DNA of 62,865 bases from a virus. Its lineage: Duplodnaviria; Caudoviricetes. Shown one piece after another: positions 1 to 47,642 of the stretch (position 1 is its first letter; every line of letters begins with the position of its first letter). A program made the translations under genes and the position numbers. The stretch lies in the IMG/VR virus record IMGVR_UViG_3300011335_000874, positions 1 through 62,865 of that record, one strand, 5' to 3'. Under the pieces are notes generated by a model. It made no database searches and was not told the origin of the DNA. It worked only from the letters and a program-made list of their open reading frames with translations.

Positions 1-141
1 ATGAGTAAAGGGATTCAGAACCGACAAGTTAAGCTCCGTGACCTAAAGAATTATTATGGGCTTAAAGGTCGCACAGCAGCAGATTGCCTACCCCAATTCA
101 TCCAATTGATGGAGCAATTTACAGGCCAGCCAGTTAAATAA
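1..141 (+). CDS. small hypothetical early protein (possibly 5'-truncated)
   Basis: Open frame MSKGIQNRQVKLRDLKNYYGLKGRTAADCL... ending TAA at 139-141, followed by an early promoter/stem-loop. Confidence 0.55.
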   Translation: MSKGIQNRQVKLRDLKNYYGLKGRTAADCLPQFIQLMEQFTGQPVK

Positions 142-145
142 AACG

Positions 146-190
146 GGGCGGGGCACAACCCCGCTCATACATTTACGTCAACCAAAAAAT
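146..190 (+). promoter_or_regulatory. early promoter/stem-loop element, copy 1
   Basis: GGCA(152)-N12-TACATTTA(168) then CGTCAACCAAAAAA; overlaps hairpin GGGCGGGG-CACAA-CCCCGCTC. Confidence 0.7.
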
Positions 191-198
191 TAAAAGTT

Positions 199-387
199 AT
201 GAACATAGAAGATTTAGGATTAACTAGTGAAGATTTTACAGAAATTCTTGTTAAGCATATGCAGAAATATTTACCAGAAGGTAGATGGATTGTTTCATAT
301 GTAGACCATGAAATAGTAGTACAAAATGATTTTAATGAAGTTGCAAGATATAGACTTCATGACTACGGTAAATCATATCTTTCTTAG
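199..387 (+). CDS. small hypothetical early protein
   Basis: ORF directly downstream of the repeated promoter, A-rich leader. Confidence 0.7.
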   Translation: MNIEDLGLTSEDFTEILVKHMQKYLPEGRWIVSYVDHEIVVQNDFNEVARYRLHDYGKSYLS

Positions 388-428
388 GCAAAATTTCTTA
401 TTATATTTACGTCAACCAAAAAATTAAA
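387..428 (+). promoter_or_regulatory. early promoter element, copy 2
   Basis: GGCA(387)-N11-TATATTTA(402) then CGTCAACCAAAAAATTAAAA, same 3' part as copy 1. Confidence 0.7.
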
Positions 429-431
429 ACC

Positions 432-611
432 ATGAACAAAAAATTATTATTATTTAGAATTACAGTTGCAGTATTTATTATTCTTAACTTCATCATTTCA
501 TACAAGTTAGAGACAGCGGCTGATGTGTTTATTATGTTATTCACTTCCCTATTTAGTGTATCTTACATCTTGGCAGAAGCATACCATGCATTTGACGAGG
601 CAGAGCAGTAA
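432..611 (+). CDS. small two-helix membrane protein (59 aa, not in ORF track)
   Basis: MNKKLLLFRITVAVFIILNFIISYKLETAADVFIMLFTSLFSVSYILAEAYHAFDEAEQ*, two hydrophobic stretches, follows promoter copy 2. Confidence 0.7.
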   Translation: MNKKLLLFRITVAVFIILNFIISYKLETAADVFIMLFTSLFSVSYILAEAYHAFDEAEQ

Positions 612-622
612 TTATATATTCA
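591..622 (+). promoter_or_regulatory. early promoter element, copy 3
   Basis: TTTG(591)-N20-TATATTCA(615), GGCA at 599. Confidence 0.6.
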
Positions 623-724
623 CATTAACCAAATAATAACACATGCCACCAATAAGTACATTACCAAGCGTAGGATTAGGACCAATAACCATATCAAGTA
701 AGTAACCATTAAATCAAATAACGT

Positions 725-973
725 ATGTTAACAAAACAATTCAATGAACTACAACGCCAAGCGGATGTAGTGGTAACTAGAGTAAATGTAGCCGATTTAA
801 AACCTGGACACAGTGTATTCGGTAATAAGGGTAACGTGTGGGAAGACACAGCACACATCTACAAGTCCGGTGAGGGTAACTTGTGTGGGACACCAGCTCT
901 AAGTAGTAACTGGGCGCGTATTGAGGGAGTACAGACGATTGGATGTCCACGGTGTTTAGAGCGGTATAAATAA
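725..973 (+). CDS. hypothetical protein, possible Zn-binding
   Basis: H...LCG...CPRC ligand pattern. Confidence 0.65.
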   Translation: MLTKQFNELQRQADVVVTRVNVADLKPGHSVFGNKGNVWEDTAHIYKSGEGNLCGTPALSSNWARIEGVQTIGCPRCLERYK

Positions 974-990
974 GCACACCAACATCAATT

Positions 991-1034
991 AAACGGAGCG
1001 GGGCTGGTCACAGTCTCGTTCCTATATTCACGTC
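991..1034 (+). promoter_or_regulatory. early promoter/stem-loop element, copy 4
   Basis: AAACGGAGCGG, GTCA(1007)-N12-TATATTCA(1023)CGTCA; hairpin GAGCGGGCTG-GTCA-CAGTCTCGTTC. Confidence 0.6.
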
Positions 1035-1051
1035 ATGAAAATAATATAAAC

Positions 1052-1306
1052 ATGAAACAATTAATCGCATTATTAGTCCTAGTAGTAACATTATTTAGCT
1101 GTACAGCCAATGAGCGCGCTCGTAACTTAGGGGGTACTGAGCACGTTACCTTAGATGAAGGTGAACGCCTGGTGAATGTAACCTGGAAACAGGATGACCT
1201 GTGGATCCTAACCAAACAGGATAACACTAAACCGTCCACATACTCGTTTAAGGAAAAATCGAGCTATGGGATAATGGAGGGTGAGATCATAATTACAGAG
1301 CAATAA
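1052..1306 (+). CDS. predicted lipoprotein
   Basis: MKQ, hydrophobic core, lipobox LFSC. Confidence 0.75.
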   Translation: MKQLIALLVLVVTLFSCTANERARNLGGTEHVTLDEGERLVNVTWKQDDLWILTKQDNTKPSTYSFKEKSSYGIMEGEIIITEQ

Positions 1307-1355
1307 AACGGAGCGGAGCACAATACCAATCGTATATTCATGTCAACCAAAAACA
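1306..1355 (+). promoter_or_regulatory. early promoter element, copy 5
   Basis: AAACGGAGCGG, AGCA(1317)-N12-TATATTCA(1333)TGTCAACCAAAAA. Confidence 0.65.
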
Positions 1356-1363
1356 TTAAACGT

Positions 1364-1606
1364 ATGAATACAGAATTAGTAAACCAAGCAGTAGCATTAT
1401 TTATTGAGACGTTACCACTCGAGGGTATGAGTGCTACCCACCCTCAATTCCACCACCTGTACTCTCAGGAGTGTCAATTATACCGTCTAATGCGGTTGAT
1501 GGAGGAAGATGAGATGAGTGAGTACAAACGCCAGATTGCGGATGTGGATTCGGAGGTGGGATTGATATTGATGGGATTGAATGATATGATCGATCCTAAC
1601 GAATGA
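1364..1606 (+). CDS. hypothetical acidic protein
   Basis: Start moved from 1340 (inside the promoter element) to the ATG at 1364. Confidence 0.6.
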   Translation: MNTELVNQAVALFIETLPLEGMSATHPQFHHLYSQECQLYRLMRLMEEDEMSEYKRQIADVDSEVGLILMGLNDMIDPNE

Positions 1607-1640
1607 TGAGCATGGACTCAAACCCCAGCACCAGAATACA

Positions 1641-1878
1641 AGGAGGTGGCCGTAAGGTCGCCTTCTGTCGTCTGTACAAAAGAGAGCGCGCGCGTGTGAG
1701 GGAGGGTGGATCCTCGGGGATCTCTGGATCTTGAGGGTGGTATCGGACCGATAGCGGTTCGTACACGGATCGATCGCGATCTGCTCCCACATTAATTGCG
1801 GTCCATCGATGGGGCGTTGGCGGCGCGAAAAAAGCCCCATGTATTCTCAACACGCAAACACCTCTACACCATCGACAG
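1641..1878 (+). ncRNA. putative structured non-coding RNA (or structured DNA element) of unknown class
   Basis: 71/120 G+C over 1681-1800; several hairpins with G-U pairs and a GUAA tetraloop; long-range pairings 1665-1670/1873-1878 and 1692-1700/1846-1855; no credible ORF. Confidence 0.55.
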
Positions 1879-1974
1879 TATATACGCATATACCCCTCTC
1901 ATAATCTTAAATTCCGACTTAGCCATTTTGTAGTAGCTTTGCGAAATCCCAAAATCTCCTCTTAAACGATCTTT

Positions 1975-2006
1975 TTTGTATAGGCAAAGTATATACGTTA
2001 CATTTA
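1975..2006 (+). promoter_or_regulatory. Bacteroidota-type early promoter
   Basis: TTTG-N20-TACATTTA, GGCA at 1983. Confidence 0.65.
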
Positions 2007-2024
2007 TTATATAACACTAATAAT

Positions 2025-2261
2025 ATGACGCCAAAAGATAAAGCACAATATATATTTGATAAGTTTTGGAATGTAGATAATTTAGGCAGGTTTTCAGATG
2101 AACATGGATATTCATCTTGGTCTACAATTGTATTAAAACAACAAGCAAAAGAATGTGCATTGATTGCAGTTGATGAAGTATTAAGTACTATGGACGAAGA
2201 AGATAATTATGTTATGTACAAATATTGGACAGAAGTAAAACAAAAAATAGAAAAATTATGA
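2025..2261 (+). CDS. small hypothetical protein, paralog family A
   Basis: MTP..KA / CALIAVD / YWxEVKQxIEK motifs shared with the next ORF. Confidence 0.8.
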   Translation: MTPKDKAQYIFDKFWNVDNLGRFSDEHGYSSWSTIVLKQQAKECALIAVDEVLSTMDEEDNYVMYKYWTEVKQKIEKL

Positions 2262-2479
2262 CACCAGCAGAAAAAGCATTTGAATTAGTAACCAAGTACA
2301 GTAGGATACTACCTATGAATCAAACAACGCTATTAGATCGTAAAAATTGTGCTTTAGTAGCAGTTGATGCAATACAAAAATTACCAAATATTCAATACGA
2401 CGCCATTCAATATAATAATAATGATGAATCTCAATACGATTATTGGCAAGAAGTAAAACAAGAAATAGAAAAAATATGA
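2258..2479 (+). CDS. small hypothetical protein, paralog family A
   Basis: Start reassigned to MTPAEKA (ATGA overlap); CALVAVD, YWQEVKQEIEKI. Confidence 0.8.
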   Translation: MTPAEKAFELVTKYSRILPMNQTTLLDRKNCALVAVDAIQKLPNIQYDAIQYNNNDESQYDYWQEVKQEIEKI

Positions 2480-2652
2480 AACTAATAATTAAAACCAGAG
2501 ACATAGAGATAGAATATCAAGACGACTACTCCATGTTAGAAGCACAAGCAAAAGATAGAATAATAGAATTAATAAAGACTATATATTCAGCACAGCCTAC
2601 CTACATACCTACGGGAACAGTAGAAGAAATATTTAACGCAAAAAAGAAATAA
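2476..2652 (+). CDS. small hypothetical protein
   Basis: Start reassigned to MKLIIK (ATGA overlap). Confidence 0.65.
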   Translation: MKLIIKTRDIEIEYQDDYSMLEAQAKDRIIELIKTIYSAQPTYIPTGTVEEIFNAKKK

Positions 2653-2655
2653 TAT

Positions 2656-3021
2656 ATGACAGCAGTAGAATTTTTAATAGAACAATTAATTAAATACGAG
2701 TTAGTACCAAAGGAAACTAATGTTGATAATGTAATATTTCATAGAGCCAAAGAAATAGAAAAGAAAGAAATCATAGATGCTTGGAACAATGGAGATTTTG
2801 GATATTATAGAACAGCAGAACAATACTACAATGAAACATACAAAAACAAAATTAATCTTGTAGAGATACCACGTGAACAACTCGAGAAGGAAAGAAATCC
2901 TAATTACAAATATTTTAATATTAATGAAACAACTTCTCAATTACCAGGTATAAATGTTAATGATGTAAAGCCATCTAATCCACAAATGGTAAAGGAAAAT
3001 TTTAGCACAAAAAATAAATAA
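2656..3021 (+). CDS. hypothetical protein, paralog family B
   Basis: TAV / AxExEKxxIIDA / EQYYxE motifs shared with 3023-3217. Confidence 0.75.
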   Translation: MTAVEFLIEQLIKYELVPKETNVDNVIFHRAKEIEKKEIIDAWNNGDFGYYRTAEQYYNETYKNKINLVEIPREQLEKERNPNYKYFNINETTSQLPGINVNDVKPSNPQMVKENFSTKNK

Positions 3022-3022
3022 T

Positions 3023-3217
3023 ATGCAAACAGCAGTTCAAAAATTAATATCTGAAATAAAAGGATATCCATCAGATTGTGAAATATTTCAAGATGCTATT
3101 GAAATGGAAAAGCAACAGATAATAGATGCTTATGAAAGTAGAATAGGTTATAATTATAATTTTGAATTATCAGGAGAACAATATTATCAAGAAATATTAA
3201 AACAAATAAAAAAATAA
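3023..3217 (+). CDS. hypothetical protein, paralog family B
   Basis: MQTAV, AIEMEKQQIIDAY, GEQYYQE. Confidence 0.75.
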   Translation: MQTAVQKLISEIKGYPSDCEIFQDAIEMEKQQIIDAYESRIGYNYNFELSGEQYYQEILKQIKK

Positions 3218-3218
3218 T

Positions 3219-3356
3219 ATGCAATACAATAATGACATAGGATACAAATATATTATGCTTTTTCTTTGGACCATATTTTTATGGGCATCTATTCTACATA
3301 TACCATGTAGAACAAAAAGATTGAGTTGGATAGAACCACTTGAATGCGCTTATTAA
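3219..3356 (+). CDS. small membrane peptide (45 aa, not in ORF track)
   Basis: MQYNNDIGYKYIMLFLWTIFLWASILHIPC... fills the gap between neighbouring genes. Confidence 0.5.
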   Translation: MQYNNDIGYKYIMLFLWTIFLWASILHIPCRTKRLSWIEPLECAY

Positions 3357-3368
3357 AAACAAAAATAT

Positions 3369-3575
3369 ATGAAACGACACAAACAATACTACTTTGAAGC
3401 AGTAGAAGATAACCCAAAAATACATAGAGTCATTATGGTATGGCGCAAACCCAAAAAACGATTACGCATACGTGAAATCATGTATTGGGCGTGGCAAGTG
3501 CAATCCGATAAACAATATATTAAAAAATATTTTAAAAACGACGAATATGAAGCCCCTGGATTTATTATTGACTAA
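3369..3575 (+). CDS. small basic hypothetical protein
   Basis: ORF in operon context. Confidence 0.6.
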   Translation: MKRHKQYYFEAVEDNPKIHRVIMVWRKPKKRLRIREIMYWAWQVQSDKQYIKKYFKNDEYEAPGFIID

Positions 3576-3738
3576 AGAAGCGTTTGACCAATACGCAACG
3601 CGTTTGCGTGAAGAAAAAGCACGCGAATACGGCATGACACTAGAGCAGTGGGATGCTGCGGTGCGTAGCGGCGCGACAGTTAACCCTATTACGCATATTA
3701 GTAATACCCAGCCATCATCTTCACTTAATAATCAATAA
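3547..3738 (+). CDS. small hypothetical protein
   Basis: Likely start MKPLDLLL (ATG 3547). Confidence 0.6.
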   Translation: MKPLDLLLTKEAFDQYATRLREEKAREYGMTLEQWDAAVRSGATVNPITHISNTQPSSSLNNQ

Positions 3739-3741
3739 TAT

Positions 3742-4218
3742 ATGCAACGCGTAACACCAGATGAATCACACTACTACATTAAACTTAAATCACATCAACA
3801 TCGCAAAGCTGATGCGTTTACTTTGATTAAAGAGGAAGACGGATGGGATACTGTAGTTTACTTAGCCAACGCTGTTTTAGACCCTTCAGGCGCTGTTCGC
3901 GCGCCTGAATACGTGTACGTACTAGTAAATAAGAGTGTACCTAATATGGTTAAAATTGGTATGACTAAATTAACGCCTGATGAACGTGCTCGTCAAATAT
4001 CTGCCGCTACTGGTGTAGCAACACCATGGATTCCTGTATATTCATTCCAATGTTATCGCTCCGATCTATTAGAAGAGGAAATACATAATCATTTTCATTA
4101 CTGTCGTGTCAATACACATCGTGAAATGTTTGCTATTGATTCGCATACTGCGCAAAAAGTAATTGAGGAGTTAGGATATAAGTATTCTACTGCGATGTGG
4201 GATTATGCTGGCAAGTAA
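3742..4218 (+). CDS. GIY-YIG superfamily protein (T5orf172/MUG113-like)
   Basis: YVYVL..VKIGMT...ERARQI...LEEEIH...REMF pattern. Confidence 0.85.
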   Translation: MQRVTPDESHYYIKLKSHQHRKADAFTLIKEEDGWDTVVYLANAVLDPSGAVRAPEYVYVLVNKSVPNMVKIGMTKLTPDERARQISAATGVATPWIPVYSFQCYRSDLLEEEIHNHFHYCRVNTHREMFAIDSHTAQKVIEELGYKYSTAMWDYAGK

Positions 4219-4228
4219 TTATAAATAA

Positions 4229-4277
4229 CCCTCACATATTTATTTATGTGGAGGGCAAAGTTCTGTTCGTATCTTCA
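4229..4277 (+). promoter_or_regulatory. hairpin with a late motif inside and an overlapping early promoter
   Basis: CCCTCACATA/TATGTGGAGGG stem; ATATTTAT at 4236; GGCA(4254)-N12-TATCTTCA(4270). Confidence 0.55.
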
Positions 4278-4319
4278 CGGTGTAAAAAATAATTAAATAA
4301 ACATTTAAAATTTAAAGCC

Positions 4320-4529
4320 ATGAAAAGTTTAAGATTAAAAAGAAATTTATTGATTTTTGGAACTTATGTTCTTGCTGCTATTTGTCAAATGGGTGCTATG
4401 CTTTATACCCACAGTTTTGAGTTTTTTACTTTTATTAGTTTAGTTGTTTTGAATGCTGTTGTAGTTGAGCAAATTAAAACTGATCTTGATGGACGCATAT
4501 ATATAGAGGAAAACTTCTTAAAGAAATAA
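4320..4529 (+). CDS. small membrane protein
   Basis: Two hydrophobic segments. Confidence 0.7.
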   Translation: MKSLRLKRNLLIFGTYVLAAICQMGAMLYTHSFEFFTFISLVVLNAVVVEQIKTDLDGRIYIEENFLKK

Positions 4530-4542
4530 TATATTTATTAAT

Positions 4543-4782
4543 ATGAAGACATATAAAATTAAGTTGGAAGATAAAGCTGCACTTATTAATGCGTTAAAAG
4601 GTATTAATATAGGAATTGATAGTTTTGATATTGTTGATGTATTACCTAAAGGGTATTTTGAAATTACATTTAATAATCCTCAGGATGAAGACACTGCTAA
4701 ATCTATTTTGAATACTCACAAAGGTATAGATCAATTAAAAGAAATGTTACGTCGTCTTATACGCGAAGAACTTAAAAAGTAA
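4543..4782 (+). CDS. hypothetical late protein with C-terminal LRRLIREEL helix motif
   Basis: ATATTTAT at 4531; C-terminal motif shared with other late ORFs. Confidence 0.7.
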   Translation: MKTYKIKLEDKAALINALKGINIGIDSFDIVDVLPKGYFEITFNNPQDEDTAKSILNTHKGIDQLKEMLRRLIREELKK

Positions 4783-4917: not shown

Positions 4918-5118
4918 ATGAGATACAAAGACAACGTATTAGACAAATTAAATCAAATAGATATTATTGCTAACCGCATTAACGTTCAAGTAAACAGAGG
5001 TGGAACTCAAGATCAAGTTATTGAATCTATTGAAATGTTAAAGGAAGCAATTGAAAATACTAGATCAATAATTTCTGTTGAATCAGATGATTTTGATCAA
5101 CAATTTAGACCACAATAA
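4918..5118 (+). CDS. hypothetical helical protein
   Basis: ORF after ATATTTAT at 4895. Confidence 0.7.
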   Translation: MRYKDNVLDKLNQIDIIANRINVQVNRGGTQDQVIESIEMLKEAIENTRSIISVESDDFDQQFRPQ

Positions 5119-5124
5119 AAATTT

Positions 5125-5403
5125 ATGCAAACAGTTTTATGGGTTATTTTAGTTCATGTAATTGAAATAGTCGGTATTGCCGGTTATTTAATTATTAGAA
5201 AAAATTCTAAGTTAGAAAAAACATTAGTTGATCAACAACAATATATAGATGCTATTAGTATCATTATTGAGGATTCGGCTAATACTATTCAAGAATTAGA
5301 TAGTCGTGGTGCATTTGCGGCTGATGATGAAGTTGGTACTTTCTTTAGAAATTTAAAGGAAATACAAAACGTTCTAAATCAATTCAATATTCGCAAAAAC
5401 TAA
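5125..5403 (+). CDS. membrane-anchored hypothetical protein
   Basis: N-terminal TM helix then coiled coil. Confidence 0.75.
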   Translation: MQTVLWVILVHVIEIVGIAGYLIIRKNSKLEKTLVDQQQYIDAISIIIEDSANTIQELDSRGAFAADDEVGTFFRNLKEIQNVLNQFNIRKN

Positions 5404-5454: not shown

Positions 5455-6234
5455 ATGTCATTATACTACGAAGAAGATAACCTCGATATATTTTTAGAGG
5501 ATACAAAAATTGCACTTAATAAACGAGGACAACCCCGTAAACGCAAACCCAAAGAACCTCGTATTTACTTTACTGAAGATACTGAGAATGCTATTGTTGA
5601 GTACTTAGCATCTACTGATCAGGATTTTCGTAATCGTCTTTATAGGGATCGTATTGAATATGCCTTTTATAAATTGGCTGAAAATATTATCCATACATTT
5701 AAGTTTTACTATACTGATACCAGCACTATTGAGGAATTAAAACATGAAGTTGTAACATTCCTACTTGAGAAACTTCATCTATATGATCAGTCTAAAGGTA
5801 AAGCCTATTCTTATTTTGGTACTATTGCTAAACGTTACCTTATAGTTTATAATAATAACAATTATAAAAAATTACAGGAATACGTAGAGATAGATGAACT
5901 AAATGAGGATAAAAGATTCCTTCATGATACTATTAAGGAACAAGAAAATTATTCTGTTTCGGATAGTTTTATTAATCAATACGTTTTATACATAGATAAA
6001 CATCTTTATCAGTTATTTCCTAAAAAACAAGATGCTCGCACTGCTGATGCTATAATAGAACTATTTCGTAAACGTGAATCGTTAGAACTATTTAATAAAA
6101 AGGCACTCTATATCTATATTAGAGAAATTACAGACACTTCTACCCCTCATATTACCAGAATAACTAAAAAATTAGACACATTACGCACACGGTTATTTAA
6201 TGAATATTATGAGCATGGGTATATAAAAATGTAA
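5455..6234 (+). CDS. RNA polymerase sigma factor for late transcription (T4 gp55-like)
   Basis: YFTEDTE..., FYKLAENI, sigma region-2-like YDQSKGKAYSYFGTIAKR; host-type promoter TTTG-N20-TATATTAG upstream. Confidence 0.75.
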   Translation: MSLYYEEDNLDIFLEDTKIALNKRGQPRKRKPKEPRIYFTEDTENAIVEYLASTDQDFRNRLYRDRIEYAFYKLAENIIHTFKFYYTDTSTIEELKHEVVTFLLEKLHLYDQSKGKAYSYFGTIAKRYLIVYNNNNYKKLQEYVEIDELNEDKRFLHDTIKEQENYSVSDSFINQYVLYIDKHLYQLFPKKQDARTADAIIELFRKRESLELFNKKALYIYIREITDTSTPHITRITKKLDTLRTRLFNEYYEHGYIKM

Positions 6235-6263: not shown

Positions 6264-6659
6264 ATGGCTAACTTTGATGATGTTACCCTATTTGGTAACA
6301 CGTCACTATCCGATATATTTAAGCAAATTCATAGAAATAATAAGGATACTGACAAACAAATTAATGAATTGATTGATGCTCTTAAACCGCTTGCATCATC
6401 CAATGCTGGATCAGCAGTAATGCTTATGCCTACTGTTAAGGATTTAATTGATGTTAACGTAAAAAATAACGAACAATTAATTAAAATGGCTGGTATTGCA
6501 CAACGTGCATCAACAGCTAGTTCAAATAATAACCAAGATTTATTTTTTGATCCATCAGAAATACAACAATTATTAGAGGAACAAAAGGCTGTGCAAGTTG
6601 AAGGTCAAAAACTATTAGATCAAACTGAGCATATCCAGCATAAAATAGAAAATAAATGA
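6264..6659 (+). CDS. hypothetical helical late protein (possibly small terminase-like)
   Basis: Late motif at 6241; helical hairpin pattern; function is a guess. Confidence 0.4.
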   Translation: MANFDDVTLFGNTSLSDIFKQIHRNNKDTDKQINELIDALKPLASSNAGSAVMLMPTVKDLIDVNVKNNEQLIKMAGIAQRASTASSNNNQDLFFDPSEIQQLLEEQKAVQVEGQKLLDQTEHIQHKIENK

Positions 6660-7840: not shown

Positions 7841-9285
7841 TGTCTACTAATCCTCCAATAATAATCCCATCTTTAAATAACCAAAATACAGGTTCTGTTG
7901 AAACATTACCTGGGGTAACGGTTTATAGTACATCAAAACAAAAAACAGATACTAATCCTCCATCTTCAGGATTTAATGTTGCTTCTTTAATTACTCCTAG
8001 TACTGTATCTACTTTAAAATCTTTAAAAGAAAATCCTAAAGCATTTGGAGATCAATTAAAAGATCAAGCTAAACAAAAAGCAATTCAAGCTATTTCAGAA
8101 TCAACTTTAGCTAAATTACTAAAAGAAAAAACAAAATTAATTAAGGAAGGAATTGAACTAGATATTAATCATCAATTAACTTTAGCTAAATTAGAATTAA
8201 GACATACTCCTAAAAAACAATATGTAAATGGAGAAACTGTAGACATTCCACCAGAGTTAAATGATGAGGAATATAAAAAAGCAGTTGAGGCTGAAGATAA
8301 GAACTACGAAGAGGCTAAAAAAATATTACAAGATAAAAAGGATAAAAATAAAGAGGATTTAGATAAATATCTAAAAGATCCTTTTAAGAGCATAAAAGAT
8401 AAAATTCAAAAACGTAAAGAAGCAAGAGCAAAACGTAAAAAAAGAACTAAAGCAGAAAAGAATAAAGCAAGAAAAGAAAAAGCAAAAGCTGTATTAAAAA
8501 ACGCTAAAAAAACACTTGGTCCTATTTTAACTTTACTTATAACAAATAAAGTTGCTGAAATTGTAGCTCAAAACGAAAAAATTCAAAAATTAATAGACGA
8601 CACTAACGCTATAATTACTGAAGCAAACGCTTCAGGAGACCCATTAAAATTAAGTAATGCTAAATTAGCTAGAGATAATGCTATTAAAGTTATAAATGAT
8701 AACGAAGCTAAAATACAAAAAGTAGCAGAAACTATAAATAAAATATCAGTGTATATTAATATTTTTAGTCTTATTGTAACTATAATTTCATCTATTCCTC
8801 TTCCAACAGCTGTCCCTCCTGGTGCTGGTATTCTTGTTAGTACAATAATGAAATTTGTAAAAATATTAGACAAAGCAAATCGCATACTTTTAATGTTATC
8901 CTCCCTAATACCAGTAGCAGAAGGTATTCTTCAAAAGGCTATTAGTATATTGGAAGATCTTAAATCACAATTACTAGATATCAATGGTAAATTAGATACT
9001 GCTGCAGCAAGTGGTGTACCTAATCTTTCACTTAATTTAAATAGTCAAACAGGAGGAATGACGCTAGGAATAATCCCTTCAGTAGAATATAAAGGATTTA
9101 AATTTGCTATACGTGAAGAAAATAATCCTAAATTTGTTGTTAAAGGAAATAAACGTCATTATGCTGAAGCTATTAATACTGATAATGTAGCTGTATTAAA
9201 GAGCGATTATTCATTTACCTTAGATCCTGATGATCTTGTAGAACAATTAAAATTAATAATAAATTCACAAAATTTACAAGCTTAA
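7840..9285 (+). CDS. hypothetical virion-associated protein, coiled-coil with hydrophobic hairpin
   Basis: Lys-rich helices, IPLPTAVPPG hydrophobic segment, baseplate operon. Confidence 0.55.
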   Translation: MSTNPPIIIPSLNNQNTGSVETLPGVTVYSTSKQKTDTNPPSSGFNVASLITPSTVSTLKSLKENPKAFGDQLKDQAKQKAIQAISESTLAKLLKEKTKLIKEGIELDINHQLTLAKLELRHTPKKQYVNGETVDIPPELNDEEYKKAVEAEDKNYEEAKKILQDKKDKNKEDLDKYLKDPFKSIKDKIQKRKEARAKRKKRTKAEKNKARKEKAKAVLKNAKKTLGPILTLLITNKVAEIVAQNEKIQKLIDDTNAIITEANASGDPLKLSNAKLARDNAIKVINDNEAKIQKVAETINKISVYINIFSLIVTIISSIPLPTAVPPGAGILVSTIMKFVKILDKANRILLMLSSLIPVAEGILQKAISILEDLKSQLLDINGKLDTAAASGVPNLSLNLNSQTGGMTLGIIPSVEYKGFKFAIREENNPKFVVKGNKRHYAEAINTDNVAVLKSDYSFTLDPDDLVEQLKLIINSQNLQA

Positions 9286-24946: not shown

Positions 24947-27900
24947 TGTCAGGATCAGCAGGTGGAAATAGAATACCAAGAGCAGCTGTTGAAAAAACAG
25001 TTCAAGAATATATACAAAAAGTATTATCTAAATTCCCTTCATTTAAGGGAGCTAAAATATCAGGATCATACAATACTGGTACTAAATCAGATTTTGGTGA
25101 TATTGATTTAATTGTTCAATTAGATAGTGAAGATAAGAAAAATATTAAAGCAGAATTAGCAAAATACGTATCATCTCTATCAGATGACGTAATAGTACCT
25201 TTTAAGAGCGACAAATACAAAGGTAAAAAATTTCTTAACACAGGTGAAATTATTACTATATTATATCCAATAACGGGTATGCCTGGTAATTTTGTTCAAA
25301 TAGATAATATTGTTTCAATAAGTGATAAGGAAGCAGAATTTAAGAAAGAATTTTTAGATTATCCTGCTGAAATACAAGGACTATTATTAGGATTAGCTAA
25401 AGTAGCTTGTTTAGAAGAAGATCCACAAGCTATATTTGCTCGTATGGGTATTAAAAATGTACCTGCACTTGAACCGAACCAAGAATATGAATTTAATTTA
25501 TCTAGTAGTGGGTTAACCTTACGTATTGTAACATTAGATAATTTTAAAGAGACTGATAGAACAGATGTATGGAAAACTAGTGATTGGTCTAATATTAAAA
25601 AATTATTTACTAATTATAAAATAGATGATACATTTGAAGAATTATTAAGTGATGTATCCGCTAAATTAACAAATATTCGTTCTAAAAATCGCGTTAAAGG
25701 TATATTTAATTCTATGGTATCCATTAAAAGTGGTGAAGTAGGTACACCTAAAGGCGATAATAAACAAAAATCATTAGATAAGGTGAATACAACATTAAAC
25801 GAAACTAATCTAGGACGATACCTAGCTAGCTTAATATTAGAAGCAGAAGATCAACCTGAACAAACAATAGCATTGTTCCCAGGAGCATTTAAACCACCAC
25901 ATAAAGGTCACGTTGATGTAGTTCAAAAGCTATTAAAAGGATCTGATCAAGTAGTAGTACTTGTATCACCAAAAACACGTGAAGGTATCACATCAGATGA
26001 AAGTGTTGCTGTTTGGAACCTATATAAAGATAAAGGTTTATTTGATGGGTCAGTTGAAATTAAAGTATCACCTGTAACACCTGTTGGTGAAGTATTTGAT
26101 GTTGTTAAAGAAAATCCTGATACTGAATTTCGTGTAGCATTTGGTAAAGGCGAAATTGATCGCTATAAGAATATTGAACGATTCCCTAATGTAAAAGTAT
26201 TTGACGCGGGGGAAATAGAGGGTGTTAGTGCAACTAATTTACGTATGGTATTAGCTCAAAAAGATGAAGACAAAATAGCTGAATATCTTCCTGATGGAGT
26301 ATCAGTAGATGAATTTTTAATGGCTTTAAATGCTAAACCTGAAGAACAACCTGAAGAACAACCAGAAGAAGAAACACCAACTACGCCACCAACTGAACAA
26401 CCACAACCAGAACAACCATTACAAGAATCACCACCAATTAATTTTGATGAATCACCATATCAAGATTATGTAATGCAAAATCAAGATAAAATAGAAAAAG
26501 CAGCTGCTGTATTTAATCTACCAATACCCGATATGGATTATGCTTTTGATAGTGGTGATGAAGTAGTATTAAATGATGACATATGGTCTAAGTTAGAGAA
26601 TAGTAAGTCATATAAAATGAAGACATTAGATGATGCTATTCAACATGCTCTAAAATTAGGTATTAATCCAAAACCATATATTGATCAAATTAAAGCTGGT
26701 AAGGATATGCCATTACCCCTTGTATTGTGTTATGGACAGGATAAGTATTATTTGGTAGGTGGAGAAGTGGTATTATCATTATATAAAGCATTAGGTTCAA
26801 TTCCTACTGTATTACAGGGTACATTAAATCTACAAACTAAACAATTACATCAACCTACTTCTCTTGGAGAAGGGTTGATTAGAGAATATTCGGTTGGTAT
26901 TATTAATAAACTGATACAGAAATTCAAACAAGAAGATTCTGAATTGACTGATGATGAAATAAAAAAAGTAATCAAACGTTTTGATCAGATAAAGGATAAT
27001 GTAGAACAAAAAGACATATTAAAATATACTTGGGATGATTTAGTAGATGTAGCAATATCAAATGAACCTAAACGTATCAAGGCAGGTAAGATAAATGATG
27101 GTACTGTAGATAACGCAAACTTGGTTTACAACCAAAATGGTCTTAGAGTATATAAAGGTGGAGATAAAAAATCATGTATAAGGTATGGCCATGGGTATAC
27201 ATTTTGCATATCAGCTCGTGGGACAGGAAATGCATATGGTCGATATAGAGCAGGTGATGACGAAACTAGTCCATCATTAGCCTATTTTGTATTTGATGAT
27301 AAGAGACCTAGTGGGAAAATGAATAATGATAAATTTATAGATAATACTCATCTATTAGTAGTAATGGCTGAAGAGGGTGAATATGGTGGTTATTTCATTA
27401 CAGAAGCAGATAATTCTGTTAGTGATTGGTATGAAAATTTTGAAGAAGCAGTAGAAATGTATCCTCAACTTAAAGGACTAGAAAACATATTAAAATATGA
27501 ACTACCAGCTAAGGATGATATTGATATTAGTGTTTATAATATAGAACAAGAAAAAGAAGAGGCTTTAGATAATTATTTTTATAAAGACCCCCCAGAGAGT
27601 GGAATGTTTTTTGTAGAACCAGATCAAGCAATTGCTCTTTTAAAAGGTTCTTTAAAATTATTTAAATATCGATTAACTGACACACTAAATAAAAATCTTT
27701 ATGACCCTACAATTGTAGTATTAAATAATAAATCAGAAATGGAGAGTTATGCTAGAGCAACAGAAGCCTCTTTAAATGCTGCTCGCCCAACTGCAAATGA
27801 TAAAGTTACAGTATCGTATGAAGAAATTCCTATTGATGATGAAATAAAAGCATACTTACAGGGAATGCTTAATTTAATAAGTCAATATGATAAAAAAATA

Positions 27901-37909: not shown

Positions 37910-37917
37910 TAAAATTT

Positions 37918-38154
37918 ATGAACTTTAGACAACAACAATTCAGACAATCAATGCAACAACAACAATCGTTGTATTCGGCTAAACCAACTACTACCCCTAT
38001 TCCACCACCACCTCCAAAAGAGGAACCAAAAGTTGAGGAACAACCAGTGGTAGAAGTACAACCAGAACCAGAACCTATTATTGAAGAACCAAAAGTAGTT
38101 GAACAACCAAAACCATTAACCAATACAAATAAATTACCTAACTTAGGTAAATAA
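37918..38154 (+). CDS. Gln/Pro/Glu-rich low-complexity protein
   Basis: ORF with genome-typical codons. Confidence 0.65.
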   Translation: MNFRQQQFRQSMQQQQSLYSAKPTTTPIPPPPPKEEPKVEEQPVVEVQPEPEPIIEEPKVVEQPKPLTNTNKLPNLGK

Positions 38155-46052: not shown

Positions 46053-47642
46053 ATGGCTGAACAAGCTAACATCAAAGACATAATAAAGCAGGAATATATA
46101 AAATGCGCAATGGATCCCGTGCATTTCTTTCGCAAATACTGCTACATTACTCACCCGGTTAAAGGTAGAGTATTATTTCATTTATACCCATTTCAGGAAA
46201 CAACATTAAATGAGTTTAGATTAAATCGTTTTTCCATTGTAAATAAATCACGTCAGTTAGGTATCTCTACTCTAGTAGCAGGATACGCACTATGGACAAT
46301 GCTATTTAACAAAGATAAAACAGTACTTTGTATAGCAACAAAACAAGAAACCGCTAAAGGTATGGTCGAGAAAGTACAGTTTATGTACAATAATCTACCA
46401 GCTTGGTTACGTGGTAATCAAAAACCAATATCAGATAATAAACTCTCACTCAAACTAGCAAATAACTCTCAAATTGTAGCTACATCAGCTGCATCAGATG
46501 CAGGTAGATCTTACGCCGTATCTTTGTTATTAATAGATGAGGCCGCGTTTATTGAAGGTATTGATAAAATATACACAAGTATTAAACCAACAATTGCTAC
46601 GGGTGGAGGAATTATCGCATTATCATCTCCAAATGGTATTGGTAATTGGTTCCATAAAATGTATACTGAAGCACAAATTGGTAAGAATGACTTTAAGCCA
46701 ATAGAGCTAAAATGGAACTTACACCCAGATAGAGTAGCACCAGTAGATCCAGGGTGGGAAGAACGTGAGCGTGCTAACATGTCACCACGTGAATTTGCTC
46801 AAGAATATGATTGTGACTTTTTAGGATCAGGAAATTCAGTCGTAGATTCAGATATATTATCTTTTTACGAACAAACATACATCCAAGATCCAATTGAACG
46901 CCGATTTATGGGTGGTGATTATTGGATTTGGCAATATCCAGATTATAGTAAGTCTTATATTGTGTGTGCTGATGTTGCTCGTGGAGATGGTAGTGATAGC
47001 TCTACATTTCATGTTATTGATATTGAAGCGTGTGAGCAAGTTGCAGAATATAAATCGCAAATAGGCACTAGAGAATTTGGCAATATGCTTGTATCTGTGG
47101 CTTCAGAGTATAATAATGCACTATTAGTACCAGAAAACGCTAATATAGGATGGGATGTTGTTAATACTATTATTGATAAAGGATATACAAATTTATATTA
47201 TTCGCCTCGCGCTTATGGTGAGTTGAATATTGATAAATGGATGGCTAAAATGGGTACTGATCAAACAGTACCTGGATTTACTAACTCCCAAAAGACAAGA
47301 CCACTTGTTATCTCCAAAATGGAGGCGTATATTCGAGATAGACATTTTATATTCCATTCAAAGAGATTATTAGAAGAATTACGTGTGTTTATTTGGATGC
47401 ATGGTAAAGCACAAGCGCAGAATGGATATAATGATGATTTGGTAATGGCTGCTGGTATTGGATTGTTTATTAGAGATACTGGTGTAAAATTCCATCAACA
47501 AGGTATGGATATGACTAGAAGAGCTATAGATGGAATATCAAACACAACACAAGGATATATTCCTTCACTACCTAGTGGAATACCAAATCCGTACATAATA
47601 GATACTCCATATGGTCCCGAAGACACCACATGGGTGTTTTAA
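46053..47642 (+). CDS. gp17: terminase large subunit
   Basis: LYPFQ, KSRQLGIST, LLLIDEAAF, SSPNG, FAQEYDCDF, CADVARG, DDLVMA. Confidence 0.97.
   Translation: MAEQANIKDIIKQEYIKCAMDPVHFFRKYCYITHPVKGRVLFHLYPFQETTLNEFRLNRFSIVNKSRQLGISTLVAGYALWTMLFNKDKTVLCIATKQETAKGMVEKVQFMYNNLPAWLRGNQKPISDNKLSLKLANNSQIVATSAASDAGRSYAVSLLLIDEAAFIEGIDKIYTSIKPTIATGGGIIALSSPNGIGNWFHKMYTEAQIGKNDFKPIELKWNLHPDRVAPVDPGWEERERANMSPREFAQEYDCDFLGSGNSVVDSDILSFYEQTYIQDPIERRFMGGDYWIWQYPDYSKSYIVCADVARGDGSDSSTFHVIDIEACEQVAEYKSQIGTREFGNMLVSVASEYNNALLVPENANIGWDVVNTIIDKGYTNLYYSPRAYGELNIDKWMAKMGTDQTVPGFTNSQKTRPLVISKMEAYIRDRHFIFHSKRLLEELRVFIWMHGKAQAQNGYNDDLVMAAGIGLFIRDTGVKFHQQGMDMTRRAIDGISNTTQGYIPSLPSGIPNPYIIDTPYGPEDTTWVF

Follow-up and report, generated by a model that had tools for sequence, protein, structure and literature searches.

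The virus record IMGVR_UViG_3300011335_000874 of the IMG/VR database (Duplodnaviria; Caudoviricetes) comprises 62,865 bases with a completeness rating of 39%, and is considered here in its entirety as the window. Between the stop codon of one open reading frame (ORF 1340-1606) and the start codon of the next (ORF 2025-2261) lies a GC-rich island, which an earlier note made from the letters alone had described as a candidate for a new structured RNA. We find this island to be a real, single-copy and strongly conserved non-coding element, the conserved core of which spans 1739-1996. On balance we favor the view that this core is a cis-acting control locus operating at the level of DNA, bound by protein and present once per genome, rather than a structured RNA; that it serves as an iteron-type replication origin is a more tentative proposal.

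The GC content is 0.592 both in 1621-1740 and in 1681-1800, relative to 0.313 across the window, which reproduces the 59% given in the earlier note for the latter interval and its description of the genome as AT-rich. The highest value for any 120 nt of the window (0.60) starts at 1641, and a GC content of at least 0.55 is reached at two further places only (~34.1 kb and ~36.6 kb), each within a long ORF. The island was also said to be non-coding, and this is borne out by the homologues: the interval 1607-2024 holds no ORF that is kept in relatives, and the indels of its variable parts have lengths that are not multiples of three, so protein coding was rejected. The minus-strand ORFs 1487-1840 and 1596-1889 are by-products of the high GC content. 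Neither a tRNA nor a tmRNA is called by ARAGORN, as had been claimed, and the comparison with Rfam proposed as a check gave no match at the gathering score in the whole window, and hence no known RNA family. When the threshold was relaxed to E ≤ 10 over 1400-2200, the sole match was mir-628 (14.2 bits, relative to a gathering score of 75), which lies on the other strand and outside the island; in seven related loci, Rfam returned six tRNAs only, none of which overlaps the element. The features of the locus are as follows, with the strand given where one was assigned.

1641-1666, plus strand: GC-rich hairpin with an 11-bp stem and a GUAA loop of the GNRA type
1667-1738: GC-rich spacer, variable between lineages; like the rest of 1641-1738, common to a few close relatives only
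1739-1782: four 11-nt direct repeats, GGTATCGGACC, GATAGCGGTTC, GTACACGGATC and GATCGCGATCT, candidate iterons
1784-1812: near-invariant block CTCCCAC-N3-AATTGCGGTCCATCGATGG, which holds the palindrome CCATCGATGG
1813-1840: variable segment with a conserved A-run (mean pairwise identity 40%), overlapped in the window by the hairpin ATGGGGC...GCCCCAT at 1809-1840
1821-1960, plus strand: C-rich, G-poor tract (43 C and 17 G in 140 nt), overlapping conserved blocks
1841-1851: block GTATTCTCAAC, conserved in the alignment
1869-1893: block CCATCGACAGTATATACGCATATAC, with the second CCATCGAC copy and the first GTATATAC palindrome (1878-1885)
1911-1996: 3' conserved blocks, lost or replaced in three homologues (L181, L184, L195)
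1975-2027, plus strand: promoter-like end, composed of TTTG, 20 nt, TACATTTA (1999-2006) and the start codon of ORF 2025-2261

Homologues of the element were collected by two routes. Five complete or near-complete relatives were reached via their terminase, and in four of these blastn matches the island together with the AT-richer 130 nt that follow it, at 73-76% identity (window 1650-2007 in G001, at 74% and E 2.7e-59; 1768-1996 in G002; 1741-2014 in G003; 1782-1996 in G005). The fifth, G004, carries by eye a diverged copy at the syntenic place with the order of the blocks unchanged, which both blastn and a 29-nt pattern missed. By the second route, an 18-base block of the element matched 64 IMG/VR contigs, a single time in each case, and these yield 61 distinct 450-nt stretches when the window is included. 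The principal alignment (A2) holds 59 sequences, with two that are cut by contig ends (L156, L166) and the duplicates L163, L178, L179 and L187 left out. The 18 specified bases of CGACAGTATATACNCATAT are invariant because they served as the search pattern; the CTCCCAC block, which lies outside that pattern, has a mean pairwise identity of 84% over the 59 sequences, in contrast to 37-75% for five neighboring protein families. The motifs of the element cluster nowhere else in the window, in G001 or in G002. No other non-coding feature found close to where the early variable genes give way to the late regulator and baseplate genes is as conserved.

Beyond this group of relatives the searches were negative. 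The interval 1300-2100 has no blastn match among cultured phages, and 1735-2010 has only 18 records with matches of 34-36 nt at E ~0.9. None of 36 loci found through the downstream 78-aa protein holds a homologue of the island. The upstream 88-aa protein has no relatives, and an exact 28-mer gave zero matches. A counterpart in host genomes was considered and rejected, given that the 19-nt invariant block is matched exactly at 9 places in 596 Gb of bacterial genome sequence, relative to ~9 estimated by chance, with unrelated flanks. The accessible portions of the literature on phage origins and iterons, on Flavobacterium phages and on the nearest cultured phage, Flavobacterium phage vB_FspM_immuto (hereafter immuto), yielded no paper on such an element.

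Within the core, the most regular feature is the repeat array, the units of which conform to a consensus of approximately CGATAGCGG with variants of the GATAGCG, GATATCG and GTACGTAC types. Across 57 distinct 60-nt segments preceding CTCCCAC, the self-match at a shift of 11 is 0.455, relative to 0.269 in shuffled sequences (z = 21.5), and the repeat motifs are spaced by 11 nt in 63 of 118 instances and by 10 nt in a further 22. TRF run on the window alone did not detect the array at 1739-1782; its four 11-nt units nonetheless number more than the three helix-phased direct repeats that we took as the minimum for an iteron origin. The near-invariant block that follows can also be given as CTCCCAC-N3-AATTGCGGTCCATCGAYGG. 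Its 10-bp palindrome CCATCGATGG (1803-1812) becomes CCATATATGG in two divergent homologues (L173, L197), where the center changes from CG to AT with the symmetry left intact. The 3' blocks comprise TTAGCCATTTTG (family form TAACCCCTTTTG), TTTGCGAAA (family palindrome TTTGCAAA) and CCCAAAATCTCC, followed by TTTTTTG at 1972-1978 and then by GGCAAAGTATATAC, which holds the second GTATATAC (1989-1996); the full 3' motif has no second copy in the window or in the two complete relatives that were analyzed whole. Two promoter assignments were rejected in the course of this work. As a general promoter, GTATATAC fails in that AGTATATAC occurs 39 times with at most one mismatch, relative to 40.6 expected, and is absent among the enriched upstream words, the longer motif being unique to the element; a sigma-54 promoter in the A-run segment fails in that the GG-N10-GC spacing fits, by eye, a few homologues only.

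The hairpins and long-range complements described in the earlier note are all present in the window where it had placed them. Conservation of the pairing is another matter, and for the core it is absent. RNAalifold predicts zero pairs for 1733-2007 on the 59 homologues; the 45 strongest mutual-information pairs are all separated by at most 11 columns and form no stacked Watson-Crick helix; and a mean pairing probability of at least 0.35 is reached only at three invariant pairs, all inside the block by which the sequences were collected, and by no pair on the minus strand. The three core hairpins (1745-1760, 1766-1783 and 1809-1840) are paired in 64.3% of 1178 alignment cells, relative to 64.2% after shuffling, with 200 of 500 shuffles as high and a covariation score of 0.178 relative to 0.183. 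Since the four 11-nt units fill 1739-1782, the first two of these hairpins are simply neighboring repeat units, and the third is particular to the window and a few relatives, its segment having a fold z below -1.5 in 3 of 59 sequences (the window among them) and a mean z of -0.23. The alternative pairing of 1745 with 1799, proposed as a switch or pseudoknot, shows zero double changes, and the three long-range helices, assessed in the six sequences with a common 5' part (alignment A4, with a gap there in four of the six), are paired in 76.8% of cells relative to 73.8% after shuffling, with a double change in one of 19 pairs. The interval 1607-2024 folds on the plus strand at -121.3 kcal/mol (z = -1.55, with 6 of 100 shuffles equally good) and on the minus strand with z = +0.05. 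The earlier note had itself named a lack of covariation, alongside the lack of a transcript, as the outcome that would tell against it, and because covariation is lacking in the core, the structured-RNA reading fails: a multi-hairpin, long-range or pseudoknotted RNA is not supported. What stands of the original observation is the island, and what falls away is its hairpins, which do no better than chance save for the one at 1641-1666; likewise, the statement that G-U pairs favor the plus strand applies to that hairpin and to none of the rest.

The hairpin at 1641-1666 lies outside the conserved core, 35 nt past the stop codon (1604-1606) of ORF 1340-1606, and covaries in all five sequences that carry it (alignment A3). 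Of its alignment cells 54 of 55 are paired (98.2%, relative to 89.0% after shuffling, with none of 500 shuffles as high), four of the 11 pairs are changed on both sides, the sole departures are G-U pairs of the plus strand, and the loop stays within the GNRA type. Canonical terminator hairpins stand, by eye, at the same place in other lineages, and this one appears to be a terminator-type structure that closes the early gene unit upstream. No U-run follows the stem (GTCGTCTGTAC is found there), and a terminator scan of 1-4000 does not report this site. A pattern search for further copies returned at least 109 contigs, mostly unrelated, and the loci examined among them add no hairpin.

The spacer that separates this hairpin from the core contains an A-tract unit, TGTACAAAAG (1673-1682), a GCGCGCGCG run and three GGATCY units at 1708-1731 with a spacing of ~9-10 nt. 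Six GATC sites fall within 73 nt, three of them in the spacer (1709, 1719, 1727) and three in the repeat array (1768, 1772, 1778); the homologues average 1.96 GATC per 158 nt, relative to 0.56 in shuffles (3.5x), and the window holds the maximum of 6. A-tract units of the form [AT]A[CT]AAAA, often consisting of a GC-block followed by GTACAAAAA, occur upstream of the array in 29 of the 57 homologues; of their 18 spacings, 11 are 19-20 nt. Proteins with several GKRGRP (AT-hook-like) repeats are encoded by the other GC-rich islands of G001 and G002 (G001 ~850-1240 and ~1800-2100; G002 ~8350-8750; loci L202 and L211), a few kb upstream of the element. These proteins are possible binders of its A-tracts, and the window begins past the position of such a gene.

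The 3' half of the element differs from its surroundings in strand composition. Over 60 distinct homologues, a C-rich stretch of 125 nt contains 29.7% C and 9.5% G, with a C/G ratio above 2 in 59 of the 60, while downstream coding DNA has 13.6% C and 17.0% G. The tract at 1821-1960 is among the three strongest places of C over G in the window (an equally strong excess, 20-24 per 100 nt, is seen at 37911-38030 and 26341-26470). In composition, and in composition only, it has the character of a Rho-utilization (rut) site, being a C-rich and G-poor stretch of more than ~80 nt without conserved pairing. Nine relatives (L139, L148, L150, L162, L192, L175, L176, L188 and L199) carry an insertion of ~60-100 nt, C-rich by eye, between the CATATAC and ATTTCC blocks (columns ~170-290 of A2). 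The promoter-like end that closes the element resembles TTTG / TAnnTTTG, which we take to be the promoter consensus of Bacteroidota, and its TAnnTTyA box also precedes early cassette genes.

Those early genes occupy the region upstream of the element, where variable small genes are, in the window, arranged as cassettes split by a repeated stem-loop and a TATATTCACGTCAACCAAAAA box. The repeated unit (137-210, 402-429, 615-638, 992-1065 and 1302-1375), found ahead of each small gene in this region, consists of an A-run, a GC-rich stem-loop, TATATT(C/T)ACGTCAACCAAAAA, ~10 nt and the ATG; five matches occur in the first 1.6 kb, relative to 0.22 expected, and many more copies are present in relatives. 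In their arrangement, these units are reminiscent of the promoter-early stem-loops flanking mobile cassettes of T4-like phages. The GC content is 35-50% in the early cassettes (window 1-2000), in contrast to ~25-30% in genes past the island.

Downstream of the element, 0.7-2.7 kb of variable genes are followed by conserved families (f2-f6), each present in 47-58 of 65 places (the 64 contigs and the window), and then by baseplate genes. Four of the conserved families map in the window as follows, and ORF 6264-6659 is by eye a close match to the representative of the fifth.

4543-4782: conserved family, 79-aa product
4918-5118: conserved family
5125-5403: conserved family
5455-6234: conserved family, 259-aa product

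The 259-aa product has a mean identity of 75% among 44 relatives and a weak hit to sigma-70 region 2 (16.3 bits, relative to a Pfam cut-off of 24), and may be a late sigma factor; it is found in immuto and in the Microcystis phage Mel-JY01 as well. A gene with a T5orf172 / MUG113 domain lies at 3742-4218 (158 aa; Pfam E = 1.2e-13), and its protein has weak PHROG hits annotated as homing endonuclease. Such a gene lies within ~2 kb downstream of the element in 47 of the 65 places, at variable distance and in five cases on the opposite strand, and it is lacking in 12 element loci that have 4 kb of downstream sequence. Just after the element, the paired small genes 2025-2261/2225-2479 and 2656-3021/3023-3217 are paralogous (direct repeats) and look like tandem duplications; ORF 2025-2261 belongs to phrog_21441. 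In G004 (locus L223), shortly past the diverged copy of the element, tRNA-like T-arm and acceptor sequences are seen by eye on the minus strand at ~4190-4420 and ~4570-4690, where ARAGORN calls none.

The carriers of the element are a clade of uncultured myoviruses of ~170 kb from aquatic samples. The large terminase of the window (46053-47642) shares 80-91% identity with the terminases of numerous uncultured contigs, some of which are complete records of 155-179 kb, and the terminase of immuto is 54% identical. All 46 window ORFs of at least 150 aa lie on the plus strand, and in both complete relatives analyzed whole (G001, 170,255 bases; G002, 168,946 bases) almost every ORF of at least 120 aa lies on a single strand. 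The exception seen in G001 is an opposite-strand block of two ORFs at 106-108 kb, in a listing that omits single ORFs. So one-directional a layout is unusual for a myovirus of that size. The relatives bear terminal overlaps of 127 nt, of the type that assemblers leave on circular maps, and look like lytic, headful-type phages with circular maps.

We regard the core as a DNA site that is probably read by proteins because it is present in a single copy at a fixed position, with phased 11-nt repeats, A-tracts and near-invariant blocks, and because its palindromes are kept by paired changes while a shared RNA fold is absent. It is from these features of the sequence that we infer protein binding and any role in replication. 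It is reasonable to postulate that the hairpin at 1641-1666 would terminate transcription of the upstream early cassette, and that the four 11-bp repeats (approximately one helical turn each), CCATCGATGG and the two GTATATAC would be bound by one or more sequence-specific proteins of the phage or the host, with the strand-asymmetric segment (G-rich and then C-rich) and the outward promoter completing the unit. Were the locus to act as an origin, an initiator would bind the repeats, and opening or priming would take place in the asymmetric segment beside the promoter. The skew of the complete relatives may bear on such a role: the GC skew over 5 kb is 0.14-0.25 just upstream of the element and ~0 just downstream in G001 and G002, a step that is confounded by the change of gene module, and in G002 the largest contrast of skew between halves falls exactly at the element.

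Among known kinds of element, iteron-type origins (lambda ori, R6K gamma, Vibrio cholerae PLE) appear to fit this anatomy best. They share with it phased direct repeats, palindromes, A-tracts, an adjoining region of differing composition and the presence of just one copy in each replicon. The iterons of classical origins, however, measure 17-30 bp, in contrast to the 11 nt seen here; no adjacent gene for a Rep-type initiator was found, and no clear AT-rich unwinding element is seen. A study of PLE reports that its iterons are bound by RepA and also by a T5orf172 nuclease (PMC8263062). In the large myovirus T4, oriE has been described as a cluster of 12-nt repeats whose link to origin activity is not established, according to a review (PMC3016281). 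The likeness to T4 oriE is one of description rather than of sequence comparison: in both cases a large myovirus has short direct repeats, each about one helical turn long, within a few kb of its baseplate genes and near a gene for a GIY-YIG-type endonuclease (segC in T4, T5orf172 here). The T4 repeats differ in lying within gene 5 with a period of 24 nt by tandem-repeat scan, whereas those of the element are non-coding and of 11 nt. In the parC centromere of plasmid R1, ParR binds 11-bp direct repeats arrayed around a promoter. This centromere resembles the element in its period and in the placement of repeats upstream of a promoter, and differs in that the phages considered here look lytic, headful-type and circular in map; general scans of the neighboring ORFs gave no match to the partition families (adaptor, actin-like or tubulin-like NTPase), no search aimed at these having been made. 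It is possible, though we would not call it probable, that the element represents a new type of origin with 11-bp iterons, palindromes, a switch from G-rich to C-rich strand and an outward promoter, in a genome read almost one way.

A number of observations weigh against a protein-bound DNA locus, several of them against an origin in particular. The local step in skew is confounded because it coincides with the change from the early cassette to other gene modules; the largest skew contrasts of G001 lie elsewhere, at 30 and 115 kb; and the cumulative GC skew of the relatives climbs monotonically, with no V-shape. The 3' half has 30-47% GC, relative to a genome mean of 31%, and is marked by C/G asymmetry and not by AT-richness. 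Scans with Pfam and PHROGs, which covered the neighboring ORFs rather than the whole genome, found no replication initiator family, and the conserved neighbors have no Pfam or PHROG assignment apart from the T5orf172 protein and the weak sigma-70 region 2. The syntenic 14.6 kb of immuto give no nhmmer match (E ≤ 10) and nowhere form an island of more than 49% GC; not every member of the wider family, then, carries the element. The 24-nt-period array of T4 is taken to be the repeats meant by the review, and to reflect repeats in the protein. Last, a run whose RNA nature is a guess includes a 528-nt contig across 1705-2249 of a relative, and if that run is truly RNA, then the core is transcribed. 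Two other roles were considered and found wanting on simpler grounds: a packaging site is unlikely because the large terminase gene is 44 kb away, and fixed genome ends, and hence an injection-stop signal, are unlikely because the 127-nt overlaps are of the assembly type.

The chief alternative is a role as a boundary between early and late transcription, in which a terminator, a C-rich Rho-utilization tract, operator repeats and palindromes and a regulated promoter for the downstream module act in concert. It seems to us rather unlikely, and it is not mutually exclusive with an origin. As nearly all genes lie on one strand (in the two 170-kb relatives and likewise in the window), such an element would block early read-through into late genes, and its position, always between the variable cassettes with their own promoter-like boxes and the conserved families f2-f6, suits this task. 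So do the terminator-type hairpins at the 5' edge in several lineages, the C excess of the 60 homologues and of the insertions within that stretch, the absence of conserved secondary structure, as is the case for a rut site, and the promoter-like 3' end. The arrangement calls to mind nutR-tR1 of lambda, where a terminator, a Rho-utilization site and antitermination signals stand between early and delayed genes: in each case early units precede and later genes follow on one strand, and a hairpin gives way to an unstructured, C-rich segment. Rho sites, however, show poor sequence conservation, unlike the near-invariant blocks of 16-19 nt found here, and the element has no conserved hairpin of the boxB type. 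Furthermore, phased repeats and six or more conserved blocks over some 250 bp exceed what a promoter and terminator usually need, neither GTATATAC nor GGCAAAGTATATAC represents a general class of promoter in these genomes, and the regulator has no candidate.

We consider it improbable that the core acts as a long 5' leader or an unstructured regulatory RNA, transcribed together with the gene downstream, the repeats and blocks of which would be bound by protein as RNA to affect translation, stability or antitermination. The contig mentioned above (depth 18) covers 1705-2047 and 2143-2249 of the relative, starting just past the terminator zone and ending near the stop codon of the first downstream gene, and the strand composition is strongly asymmetric. 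Many homologues also contain a CTTTTAACAA stretch that we take to be boxA-like. The RNA label of that run is nevertheless a guess, contig ends do not show transcript ends, stretches left uncovered carry no weight, and of the 22 listed runs that hold the stretch, not one is recorded as RNA. Upstream of 1700 no promoter was found, and both perfect palindromes and a period of 11 nt, close to one helical turn of B-DNA, are what DNA sites typically show.

A new structured non-coding RNA with several hairpins, long-range pairings and a switch is most improbable, in spite of the GC-rich island, the complements within it, the covarying hairpin at 1641-1666 and the slightly better than shuffled fold of the plus strand, given the lack of any shared pairing, in either alignment or pairing probabilities, and of an Rfam match. 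There is likewise very little chance that the blocks are a hotspot of recombination or homing, as a target of the neighboring T5orf172 endonuclease or a mobile remnant without phage function, for although that gene is frequent downstream, the flanks are hyperplastic, and T5orf172 proteins are putative homing endonucleases, one of which is reported to cut origin iterons (PMC8263062), the element persists in the 12 loci that lack the gene, stands as a single copy at one syntenic place rather than scattered, and at ~250 bp conserved in several blocks exceeds a nuclease site.

The favored reading of a protein-bound DNA locus would make the element a new and conserved non-coding control locus, built of repeats, in a clade of uncultured phages. 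An inference that would be tempting is corrected here, in that a GC-rich and hairpin-rich island in an AT-rich phage genome is made of phased DNA repeats and palindromes instead of a folded RNA. The carriers are an abundant and uncultured group of aquatic myoviruses, and the element itself is of moderate specialist interest. If the locus is an origin, the step in GC skew would mark the start and end of replication, beyond a mere change of gene module. Should it be either an origin or a switch between early and late genes, it would offer a handle for mapping the control of replication or transcription in phages of Bacteroidota-type hosts and for finding the protein that reads the 11-bp repeats, and its invariant blocks, present once per genome, may help to recognize this phage group in metagenomes.

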